NCBI RefSeq assembly: GCF_003334815.1
Contig: NZ_QOWO01000002.1
Length of the DNA: 64,000 nucleotides
Source: Escherichia coli
Lineage (GTDB): Bacteria; Pseudomonadota; Gammaproteobacteria; Enterobacterales; Enterobacteriaceae
Strand: one strand, 5' to 3'
The position numbers and the translations under genes were made by a program. Shown one piece after another: positions 1 through 1,805 of the stretch; within the stretch, counting starts at the first letter, position 1; every line of letters begins with the position of its first letter. Under the pieces are notes generated by a model. The model was given only the letters and a program-made list of their open reading frames with translations. It did not search any database and was not told the origin of the DNA.

Positions 1-168
1 TGTTTTGCCTTTACCGCCTTTGCCTGTTTGACGGGGATCTTCCCGAAAATGGAAGCCTTCACTGCAGAGTGGACCTTCCAGTTGGCGCTGAATGTTGCAA
101 CGCCGTTTGTGCTGGTAGGATTAGGACTGATATTCCCGCTGCTGGCGCGTAAAGCGAATAGTAAATAA
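1..168 (+). CDS. ycaM: 3' end of putative transporter gene (C-terminal fragment; start outside window)
   Basis: Frame 1 is open from the window edge to TAA at 166-168 (…LIFPLLARKANSK*), hydrophobic C-terminus; assignment by synteny with ycaN/ycaK. Confidence 0.55.
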   Translation, partial: CFAFTAFACLTGIFPKMEAFTAEWTFQLALNVATPFVLVGLGLIFPLLARKANSK

Positions 169-1077
169 TTATTGTGGTCGGTGACGCTGACTCTGGCAGA
201 TCTGACCCGTTTTTACATAATCGAGAAATGCGCGCAAGCCGCAGGACATATACTGGCGGTTTGGATAATAGATCTGGAAGCCTGGACGCTCTGTGCTCCA
301 GTCTTCCAGTACACATTCTAAACGACCAGTATCAAGGTACTCCTTGATCTGTTCATAGAGCAGATACCCGATACCAGCACCCATCAAAACGGCCTCCAGT
401 TCAGCATCAACATCATCCAGAATGATATTTCCTGCGACAGCAATTTCCAGCTCCTTTGCAAATTGCCAGTGGAAAGGTTTGCCGCTGGGATAACGAAAAA
501 CAACACATTGATGATTAAGCAGATCATGAGGATGGCGGGGTTTGCCATATCTTGCAAAGTACTCTGGCGTTGCTGCTACACATAATTTCACTGGCGGGCC
601 GATCGCCACGCTGATCATATCTTTTTCGACGATGCAACTAAGTCGAACGCCAGCGTCAAAGCCCTGTTGGACGATATCGACAAGAGAGTCGTCAGTTGTG
701 AGCTCGACTTTAATATCAGGATATTCACGTGTGAAACCAACCAGTAAAGACATTAAAAATATACGTGCAGCTACCCGGGCGGCATTGATTTTGAGCGTTC
801 CTGTCGGTGTCAGACGAAAATCATTCATCTCATCTAACATGATCTGAATTTCGTCGAAAGCTGGGCGCAATCGTTCATAGAGATTAGAACCCGCTTCCGT
901 TAACGATACGCTTCGGGTTGTCCGATTGAATAAGCGAATTTTAAGACGTTGTTCCAGTGTTTTAATACTATGGCTAATGGCGGACGAGGATAAGCCTAAC
1001 TCATCGCCCGCTGCACGAAAGCTTTGATTACGGGCCACGGCAAAGAAAGTGGCAAAGTCAGACATATTCATCCGCAT
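169..1077 (-). CDS. ycaN: LysR-family transcriptional regulator
   Basis: 302-aa ORF with N-terminal LysR-type HTH (FRAAGDELGLSSSAISHSIKTLEQRL); divergent from ycaK; its stop codon abuts the ycaM stop (taatta at 166-171). Confidence 0.9.
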   Translation of the reverse strand: MRMNMSDFATFFAVARNQSFRAAGDELGLSSSAISHSIKTLEQRLKIRLFNRTTRSVSLTEAGSNLYERLRPAFDEIQIMLDEMNDFRLTPTGTLKINAARVAARIFLMSLLVGFTREYPDIKVELTTDDSLVDIVQQGFDAGVRLSCIVEKDMISVAIGPPVKLCVAATPEYFARYGKPRHPHDLLNHQCVVFRYPSGKPFHWQFAKELEIAVAGNIILDDVDAELEAVLMGAGIGYLLYEQIKEYLDTGRLECVLEDWSTERPGFQIYYPNRQYMSCGLRAFLDYVKTGQICQSQRHRPQ

Positions 1078-1100
1078 TAGTGAAAATCCTTCATTAACTC

Positions 1101-1126
1101 ATCCTGAATCATCACGTTTACAGGAT
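1101..1126. promoter_or_regulatory. inverted repeat ATCCTG-N14-CAGGAT in the ycaN/ycaK divergent intergenic region (candidate LysR-type operator)
   Basis: Perfect 6-bp inverted repeat read directly at 1101-1106 and 1121-1126, between divergent start codons of a LysR regulator and its neighbour. Confidence 0.4.
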
Positions 1127-1176
1127 TATGCCGCCTGCGTAAAGTGCGCTCCAGAACTTAACGTGGAGGTAAAATT

Positions 1177-1767
1177 ATGCAGTCTGAACGTATTTATTTG
1201 GTATGGGCCCATCCTCGTCATGATTCATTGACCGCACATATTGCTGATGCGATCCATCAGCGGGCAATGGAGCGGAAAATACAGGTGACGGAACTCGATT
1301 TATATCGGCGTAATTTCAACCCAGTGATGACGCCGGAAGATGAACCAGACTGGAAGAATATGGATAAACGTTATTCTCCAGAGGTTCATCAGCTTTATTC
1401 AGAGCTGCTTGAACATGACACGTTAGTGGTGGTTTTTCCTCTCTGGTGGTACAGCTTCCCGGCAATGCTAAAAGGATATATTGACAGAGTATGGAATAAT
1501 GGGCTGGCTTATGGAGATGGGCACAAATTACCATTCAATAAAGTTCGTTGGGTGGCGCTGGTTGGAGGAGACAAAGAATCATTTGTCCAGATGGGCTGGG
1601 AAAAAAATATAAGCGATTATTTAAAAAATATGTGCAGTTATCTTGGTATTGAAGATGCCGATGTCACTTTCTTGTGTAATACAGTGGTATTCGATGGGGA
1701 AGAACTTCACGCGAGCTATTATCAGTCGTTATTATCTCAGGTACGGGATATGGTAGATGCACTATAA
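1177..1767 (+). CDS. ycaK: flavodoxin-like NAD(P)H dehydrogenase (quinone) family protein
   Basis: 196-aa ORF, GGAGG Shine-Dalgarno about 9 nt upstream of ATG; KefF/MdaB-like fold recognised from sequence. Confidence 0.88.
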   Translation: MQSERIYLVWAHPRHDSLTAHIADAIHQRAMERKIQVTELDLYRRNFNPVMTPEDEPDWKNMDKRYSPEVHQLYSELLEHDTLVVVFPLWWYSFPAMLKGYIDRVWNNGLAYGDGHKLPFNKVRWVALVGGDKESFVQMGWEKNISDYLKNMCSYLGIEDADVTFLCNTVVFDGEELHASYYQSLLSQVRDMVDAL

Positions 1768-1805
1768 GATGTGTTAAAAACGCTGTAGCAGAATGAAGCG
1801 CGGAA

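Follow-up and report, generated by a model that had tools for sequence, protein, structure and literature searches.

The window, by which we mean the whole stretch of 64,000 nucleotides of Escherichia coli DNA that was analysed, begins inside ycaM, which is cut by the window start. It continues with ycaN, a spacer of 99 bp (1078-1176) and ycaK, and then with pflA and pflB on the minus strand. The ycaN and ycaK genes are divergent. E. coli records, that of BL21 among them, match the region with 100% identity and carry the annotated gene names. The features of the locus, with their coordinates in the window, are as follows.

169-1077, minus strand: ycaN, an open reading frame of 302 aa; LysR-type transcriptional regulator (LTTR) of the CrgA/AphB-like subgroup
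1078-1145, both strands: 68-bp control block, conserved and gapless in the spacers examined, reaching from the ycaN ATG as far as the ycaK -10 hexamer
1078-1096, both strands: dyad TAGTGAA-N5-TTCATTA, the top conserved dyad in the alignment and the predicted recognition site (RBS) of YcaN
1101-1126, both strands: inverted repeat ATCCTG-N14-CAGGAT, with perfectly complementary arms at 1101-1106 and 1121-1126
1117-1122, plus strand: predicted ycaK -35 hexamer TTTACA, from a consensus promoter scan (spacer positions 40-45)
1125-1130, minus strand: candidate ycaN -10 hexamer CATAAT, of the pattern nATAAT, with the conserved columns A48, A51 and T52
1140-1145, plus strand: predicted ycaK -10 hexamer TAAAGT, from the promoter scan, 17 bp from the -35 hexamer
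1164-1168, plus strand: ycaK Shine-Dalgarno sequence GGAGG, 8 nt 5' of the ATG, with a purine-rich block at the same place of the alignment
1177-1767, plus strand: ycaK, an open reading frame of 196 aa; NAD(P)H oxidoreductase of the flavodoxin-like fold, predicted target gene
1810-1839, both strands: terminator-like stem-loop of 13 pairs and a following T tail, from a terminator scan

The stem-loop at 1810-1839 is bordered by runs of A and T and is found between the convergent ycaK and pflA genes.

The YcaN protein has the two domains of the LysR family. Residues 7-63 form the N-terminal winged-helix DNA-binding domain (HTH_1, PF00126, E 2e-20 in Pfam), and residues 91-290 the C-terminal effector domain, which resembles the periplasmic binding proteins (LysR_substrate, PF03466, E 8e-33 in Pfam). 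By sequence comparison with the PDB, the nearest solved structures are 3mz1 (an LTTR of Sinorhizobium), CrgA (3hhg) and AphB. The residues P91-T-G93 form a PxG hinge, which aligns with the P-Q-G of CrgA, and both P91 and G93 are invariant in 23 orthologues. The PxG hinge after the linker helix has been used as a criterion for this subgroup (PMC11495319). No cysteine is conserved among the 23 YcaN orthologues compared, which favours ligand binding over a thiol switch, and a thiol-switch mechanism for YcaN was rejected on these grounds.

The YcaK protein matches Flavodoxin_2 (PF02525, E 4e-40 in Pfam) and the NCBIfam model PRK09739, "NAD(P)H oxidoreductase", with 354 bits against a cutoff of 162. 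Its relatives in the PDB are quinone reductases of the NQO1/NQO2 type and KefF, and the PDB search returned no structure of YcaK itself. The protein has been part of E. coli libraries of candidate nitro-, quinone- and chromate reductases (PMC3596305). YcaK is predicted by this family match to be an NAD(P)H oxidoreductase, most likely controlled by YcaN. The preliminary description of the locus had given the same two families, and had placed the genes in divergent orientation around a 99-bp spacer; the domain matches bear out the former, and the coordinates of the latter are exact.

The two genes are inherited together well beyond E. coli. One genome per species was scanned with the YcaK alignment, yielding 79 loci. 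Wherever the YcaK homologue is at least 44% identical, a YcaN-like LTTR is found directly upstream and divergent (24/24 scan loci), with 44-74% identity and with spacers mostly of ~100 bp. The 24 loci span the alpha-, beta- and gamma-proteobacteria, the genera being Cedecea, Pantoea, Serratia, Rahnella, Symbiopectobacterium, Limnobaculum, Gilliamella, Caballeronia, Janthinobacterium, Pseudomonas, Billgrantia and Chelativorans. The YcaK homologues of 43% identity or less in the same scan come without a divergent YcaN-like LTTR. Pseudocitrobacter and Hafnia also have the pair, as individual look-ups of YcaK homologues showed. The search in the reciprocal direction, from YcaN homologues at 63-68% identity, again leads to a divergent Flavodoxin_2 gene ~100 bp away, in Shimwellia and in a locus whose record bears the label Salmonella.

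The surroundings of the pair differ from locus to locus. When the neighbouring open reading frames were clustered, only the ycaN and ycaK homologues proved common to the loci, and the flanks, ycaM included, vary. In Pseudocitrobacter, Shimwellia and Enterobacteriaceae bacterium 89 the pair lies between ycaD and the pfl genes as in E. coli, without ycaM. The ycaM gene was considered as a member of the module and rejected, as it is found at the E. coli locus only among the 24 contexts compared. The constant pairing of ycaN with ycaK despite differing flanks is strong comparative evidence of functional coupling. As part of our best explanation, the two genes would form a self-contained sensor/effector module that has moved between genomic contexts. 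The classic LysR regulator-target layout, which had been proposed from the E. coli locus, is thus kept as a divergent pair at 24/24 loci, and the reciprocal look-ups from YcaN agree with it.

Within E. coli the pair is an accessory element. It is complete in 3321 of the 5426 complete genomes (~61%), and absent or deleted in the remaining ~39%. In O157:H7-type strains a deletion extends from ~282 to ~1792 and leaves a ycaN remnant of 111 bp, and in other strains ycaD lies directly beside pflA. Where the spacer is present it is very uniform, with at least 99% identity in 3155 of the 3328 E. coli genomes carrying it.

The comparison of the spacers between species divides them into two parts. The first, of 68 bp, is aligned without gaps; past spacer position 68 the spacers are not alignable, save for the Shine-Dalgarno region. 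Over spacer positions 1-52 the mean identity to E. coli is 76%, compared with 36-38% for the third codon positions of the flanking genes and 70-78% for their first and second codon positions. In Pseudocitrobacter the spacer is 96% identical, and the third codon positions 41-55%. Spacer identity well above that of the third codon positions means that purifying selection acts on the block as strongly as on coding positions.

The best conserved dyad of the block lies next to the ycaN start codon, at a fixed position in the aligned spacers. Its core TGA-N7-TCA (1081-1093) is a T-N11-A LysR box, in the same register as the LTTR box with 4-bp arms separated by N7. The centre of the dyad is at 1087 (spacer position 10), which is about -66 from the predicted ycaK start. 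In the canonical case, the LTTR recognition site has 4-bp arms, N7 and the T-N11-A motif, and lies near -65 (PMC2724274). The pairs T4/A16 and A6/T14 are invariant in the 25 aligned spacers and G5/C15 is kept in 23 of them; at pair 7-13 E. coli has A:T, and Pseudomonas and Chelativorans have G:C. Four further spacers also contain the TGA-N7-TCA core. Two of the four belong to paralogous LTTRs (51-54% identity) which face an oxidoreductase of 325 aa of the Sacchrp_dh_NADP type, and which keep GTGA-N7-TCAC three nucleotides from their own ATG. Retention of the box with the LTTR, even though the divergent gene differs, is as expected for a recognition site of the regulator itself. The dyad overlaps the Shine-Dalgarno sequence and 5' UTR of ycaN, and this position fits autorepression.

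The predicted operator of YcaN is most likely, judged from these comparisons, the box GTGA-N7-TCAT within 1078-1096, instead of the 6-bp repeat at 1101-1126. YcaN would be the protein bound at this dyad. Published work defines no YcaN site in the ycaN-ycaK spacer. The dyad matches itself on the opposite strand with two mismatches, and no other match with fewer than three mismatches is found in the 64-kb window. At this threshold there is no match in the ycaC-ycaD and ycaD-ycaM intergenic regions (locus L003) or near focA, and the proposed activation site contains no further copy of the box. The preliminary description overlooked the dyad at 1078-1096, which is much better conserved than the repeat it flagged.

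Other DNA-binding proteins were considered for the spacer. CRP reads TGA-N6-TCA. A CRP site at the dyad was rejected, as the core has N7 and the box tracks the LTTR into Janthinobacterium, Pseudomonas and Chelativorans. Inspection of the spacer by eye for marbox, FNR and ArcA motifs gave no convincing match.

The other conserved elements of the block are those of a promoter reading towards ycaK. The hexamers TTTACA-17-TAAAGT have 9/12 matches to the consensus (5/6 for the -35 and 4/6 for the -10). Both hexamers are kept in all lineages except Billgrantia, the -35 hexamer as TT(T/A)(A/T)CA and shifted by one in Chelativorans. Janthinobacterium and Pseudomonas have TTATCA-17-TAAGCT at essentially the same spacer positions. 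The column conservation has its maximum at T1, A2 and T6 in the -10 hexamer; spacer positions 53-60, which lie between -35 and -10, show none. Conserved hexamers with a variable gap are the signature of a real sigma-70 promoter, and transcription of ycaK would start near 1152-1153. Because the promoter is close to consensus, ycaK may do without an activator, and its regulation could be positive or negative.

For ycaN, the nATAAT element on the minus strand may be the -10 hexamer, judging from the conserved columns, and transcription would then begin at ~1118 on that strand; no convincing -35 hexamer is present for it. A mirror-image promoter, TTTACG-17-TAAACG, was also considered and rejected, its -10 hexamer being without T at position 6. 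Published promoter predictors gave no clear ycaN promoter (PMC9308461).

The inverted repeat ATCCTG-N14-CAGGAT, which had been put forward earlier as a plausible operator, lies downstream of the dyad. Its description as a perfect 6-bp repeat with arms at 1101-1106 and 1121-1126 is exact in coordinates and in complementarity. The arms occupy spacer positions 24-29 and 44-49; in the coordinates of the predicted ycaK promoter they extend from about -52 to -27. The right arm shares bases with the ycaK -35 hexamer and with the possible ycaN -10 (columns A48/A51/T52). The 99-bp spacer was shuffled 5000 times with its dinucleotides preserved, and 40% of the shuffled sequences have at least one perfect 6-bp inverted repeat whose loop is no longer than 40 nt (mean 0.65 per shuffle). 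An expectation of 0.01 holds for ATCCTG-N14-CAGGAT as an exact pre-specified pattern only, and not for any inverted repeat. The real spacer has two perfect 6-bp inverted repeats, as 16% of the shuffles have two or more; the second, which the preliminary description missed, pairs AATCCT (1085-1090) with AGGATT (1122-1127), and so uses the right arm again.

All 12 arm positions are intact in Pseudocitrobacter (locus L084), which is the only such lineage besides E. coli among the spacers compared. The common version of the spacer has ATCTCA...CAGAAT at the arm columns, which is 2/6 complementary, and Limnobaculum has 3/6. No repeat is present at the homologous columns of Shimwellia and of the locus labelled Salmonella, and in Enterobacteriaceae bacterium 89 there is another repeat, ATAATCC-N8-GGATTAT, peculiar to it. 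When 1101-1126 was examined as an LTTR box, neither the T-N11-A spacing nor conservation among the orthologous control regions was found. The DNA-binding pair of an LTTR reads a T-N11-A box of ~15 bp, with the recognition helices one helical turn apart (PMC2724274). With their centres 20 bp apart, the arms of the repeat are not readable by a single pair of this kind. As an RNA hairpin the repeat is weak (-5.6 kcal/mol) and lies 5' of the predicted ycaK start; together with the absence of an Rfam match, this led us to reject it as an RNA structure. In our reading, the stretch containing the repeat is functionally constrained, and its symmetry is probably incidental or a lineage-specific tuning, and not the primary operator. 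The proposal that the repeat is the operator is therefore not supported, given its chance-level occurrence, its restriction to Pseudocitrobacter outside E. coli, its geometry, and the conserved box at 1078-1096.

Taking these features together, we propose, with a probability of about 0.55, that YcaN controls ycaK through the conserved box in 1078-1096 and a weaker second site. YcaN would bind GTGA-N7-TCAT in the dyad as its high-affinity recognition site, and in this position it would cover the 5' UTR and the ribosome-binding site of ycaN, which would result in autorepression of ycaN. The second contact (the activation site, ABS) would be weaker and variable between lineages, and its expected place is the stretch from about -52 to -27, which in E. 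coli would coincide with the region of the repeat, overlapping the -35 hexamer of the promoter predicted to drive ycaK. Upon binding of a small-molecule effector, the second contact of YcaN would shift, and the ycaK promoter would be released or activated. The effector is probably quinone-like or electrophilic, and related to the substrate of YcaK. In this model, the binding of YcaN to the dyad, the ycaK start site, the autorepression of ycaN, the direction of ycaK regulation and the nature of the effector are the parts that we infer.

Several other readings of the spacer were weighed against this model, and two of them concern the repeat. If the repeat itself were the operator, a YcaN dimer would read it as one dyad. 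Its perfection, its place in the constrained part of the spacer and the survival of every arm position in Pseudocitrobacter, at a distance where synonymous sites are only 41-55% identical, are in line with this idea; it is made unlikely, however, by the frequency of such repeats in shuffled spacers, by the complementarity of only 2-3 of the 6 pairs elsewhere, and by an arm spacing that misfits T-N11-A. Moreover, the neighbours of the arms outside the repeat are equally conserved in Pseudocitrobacter, so that selection on the symmetry itself is not demonstrated. Possible, and to be taken more seriously if still tentatively, is that the repeat has no function as a repeat, the left arm being conserved through its overlap with the activation site and the right arm through its overlap with the -35 hexamer and the -10-like element of ycaN. 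The position of the right arm on TTTACA (1117-1122) and on A48/A51/T52, the occurrence of the repeat in a single lineage and the high chance expectation are all consistent with such an overlap. Against it, all four substitutions that separate E. coli and Pseudocitrobacter from the common version create complementarity, which is mildly suggestive of selection for symmetry, in this single lineage only. A further reading treats the dyad at 1078-1096 as an RNA element, a hairpin in the ycaN 5' UTR masking the Shine-Dalgarno sequence, and not as DNA bound by a protein. The dyad does span the Shine-Dalgarno sequence of ycaN, and the pair 7-13 stays complementary in both of its forms, A:T and G:C. 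Its hairpin, however, has an energy of only -2.6 kcal/mol, with a z-score of -0.5, and a fold no less stable is reached by 53 of 200 shuffles; the pair 3-17 would be an A-C mismatch in the ycaN mRNA, no Rfam family matches, and the invariant T-N11-A is a signature of DNA recognition. We regard the hairpin as highly improbable.

The remaining rival comes from the published data on YcaN. ChIP-exo of YcaN-8myc in glucose M9 gave six weak sites (cspE, ynjB, yobF, ung, rho and yihQ) with signal/noise of 1.1-4.5. The ycaN-ycaK spacer has no peak, and the positions at ynjB and yihQ are listed for other factors as well (Gao et al. 2021, PMC8464067). In RNA-seq of a ycaN knockout, ycaC, ycaD and focA were changed (Rodionova et al. 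2022, PMC9068703). The same report notes the ycaN-ycaK-ycaM cluster and gives the role as "unknown", and in the accessible part of the report and its supplementary files ycaK is neither highlighted in the text nor mentioned in the supplement (PMC9068703). A review of 2024 names PycaC and PycaD as the targets of YcaN and enters its ligand as unknown (PMC11495319). The earlier statement that no ligand or regulon is defined for the pair is thus essentially right, but it passed over the ChIP-exo and knockout RNA-seq of YcaN that exist in print. Genomic SELEX of QseA suggested ycaN among the QseA targets. A YfeD ChIP-exo entry labelled "ycaN" was rejected as not usable, since its coordinates disagree with the gene.

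On these data the E. coli module could have decayed or been rewired, with ycaC, ycaD and focA, in place of ycaK, under the direct or indirect control of YcaN. The missing ChIP-exo peak at the spacer and the genes named in the knockout text are what this reading would lead one to expect, and the pair is dispensable, being missing from a large part of the E. coli genomes. We consider it doubtful. The spacer has been kept nearly identical in the E. coli genomes carrying it, with every family-conserved element in place, and the regions ycaC-ycaD, ycaD-ycaM and near focA contain no match to the box with fewer than three mismatches. The absent peak and the silence on ycaK are the main evidence against control of ycaK by YcaN, and they are weak counter-evidence, because the ChIP signals came close to background level and were obtained without inducer. 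The comparative data suggest that the published targets ycaC and ycaD are possibly indirect, and that ycaK is the conserved partner.

A more far-reaching version of the preferred model can also be formulated. The 68-bp block may be a rigid "cassette promoter" spanning the classes, in which one YcaN oligomer reads the GTGA-N7-TCAY box and a second site tuned by lineage, and E. coli and Pseudocitrobacter may have evolved a new symmetric element over the -35 hexamer. Taken jointly, these proposals are speculative and rather unlikely. If they were true, ATCCTG-N14-CAGGAT would re-tune the contact of YcaN with the activation site, or recruit an unrelated second regulator, and a portable module for the detoxification of quinones or electrophiles would follow a different input logic in E. 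coli and Pseudocitrobacter.

YcaN is one of the remaining orphan LysR regulators of E. coli, and control of ycaK through the box, as proposed here, would give it an operator prediction (1081-1093) that can be tested by mutation. An accessory cassette of two genes also matters for the reading of strain differences in the reduction of quinones or nitro compounds. The result is a tidy and testable annotation, which will hold no surprise for specialists.

Among the known systems, the canonical LTTRs offer the general frame for the proposed operator. The box of BenM/CatM is ATAC-N7-GTAT. With BenM/CatM and CbnR the YcaN box shares the 4-bp arms, the N7 and T-N11-A geometry and a centre near -65. 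Also shared are the divergent orientation of the regulator gene, the expectation of a less conserved second site adjoining or covering the -35 hexamer and the position of the regulator's promoter or 5' UTR under the recognition site. The arm sequence GTGA/TCAY, on the other hand, is particular to the YcaN subfamily, and the ycaK -35 hexamer is already near consensus, unlike that of many activator-dependent LTTR promoters.

By sequence, AphB of Vibrio cholerae (3szp/3t1b) falls into one LTTR subgroup with YcaN (E ~5e-28). Its response reportedly involves a cysteine, whereas no cysteine is conserved in the YcaN orthologues, and its target gene is unrelated. The signals of AphB are pH and oxygen, and its targets are virulence genes (PMC11495319). 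On the side of the enzyme, YcaK shares the Flavodoxin_2 fold signature with KefF, NQO1/NQO2 and Smu.1420, which are among its PDB matches.

The closest characterised analogue of YcaN-YcaK is CrgA-MdaB of Neisseria meningitidis, in which a LysR regulator is likewise divergent from the gene of a flavodoxin-like NAD(P)H quinone oxidoreductase. Over residues 1-289 YcaN aligns with the sequence of the CrgA structure 3hhg (E 3e-29), and the two proteins have the PxG hinge in common. CrgA represses its own gene and activates mdaB, and its footprint of 63 bp, with two T-N11-A motifs, is similar in size to the 68-bp conserved block described here (PMC2724274). The CrgA system is induced by alpha-methylene-gamma-butyrolactone, probably indirectly (PMC2724274). 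The two systems differ in their sites, as site 1 of CrgA, read from the footprint sequence (PMC2724274), is ACTTT-N8-AAAGT, unlike the YcaN box. They differ also in their enzymes: YcaK, which is not an orthologue of MdaB, fits best to PRK09739, KefF and the NQO1/NQO2 type. YcaN-YcaK is a further instance of an LTTR with a divergent oxidoreductase gene, as is CrgA-MdaB.

The ycaM-ycaN-ycaK segment (window 1-1800) shows a presence/absence polymorphism in E. coli (records L001, L002, and L003), with the full ycaN-ycaK pair found in 3321 of 5426 complete genomes of the species. O157:H7-type strains carry a deletion of ~282-1792 (window coordinates), from which a 111-bp remnant of the ycaN 3' end is retained, and in other E. 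coli strains ycaD directly adjoins pflA. The 99-bp spacer also has five matches on E. coli records annotated as plasmids, which could be F-prime-like captures or assembly artefacts.

In Pseudocitrobacter (L084), Shimwellia (L089), and Enterobacteriaceae bacterium 89 (L004), ycaN-ycaK is located between ycaD and pflA/pflB, the same site as in E. coli, and the pair therefore seems to be old at this position and to have been lost from many enterics. The ycaM gene is absent from the site in all three, and looks like a later arrival. The convergent ycaM (end at 168) and ycaN (end at 169) have abutting stop codons with zero intergenic bases (window 166-171), and are entered as a convergent 'excludon' (PMC12288877). 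At the other end of the pair, one structural element is found:

1810-1839, stem-loop with a 13-bp stem and A and T runs on its flanks, between the convergent ycaK and pflA

This element looks like a bidirectional intrinsic terminator.

A direct repeat is also present, in two copies:

1125-1137, first copy, ATTATGCCGCCTG
1174-1186, second copy, ATTATGCAGTCTG

The first copy opens a mini-ORF of 4 codons (ATG CCG CCT GCG TAA), located upstream of the predicted ycaK start; its Pseudocitrobacter counterpart is likewise 4 codons long. The mini-ORF is probably due to chance. In the homologous region preceding the -35 element, Enterobacteriaceae bacterium 89 (L004, 2903-3000) has a perfect 7-bp inverted repeat of its own, ATAATCC-N8-GGATTAT; its right arm corresponds to that of the E. 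coli repeat (ATCCTG-N14-CAGGAT), whereas the left arm lies 6 bp closer.

In either MG1655 coordinate version, positions 939919-939929 are ~9 kb away from ycaN. It is to this interval that site 12 of the YfeD ChIP-exo list, labelled 'b0900 ycaN', is assigned (PMC8464067, Dataset S4). Either the number or the label of this site is therefore wrong.

YcaN-like paralogous LysR-type regulators, with 51-54% identity, are present in Cedecea neteri and Pseudomonas gingeri (L090, 2392-2500; L091, 2358-2500). The divergent gene opposite these regulators differs from ycaK and encodes a 325-aa oxidoreductase of the Sacchrp_dh_NADP type. Both paralogues keep a GTGA-N7-TCAC box, three nucleotides from their own ATG, which suggests that one box is common to a wider subfamily of LysR-type regulators.
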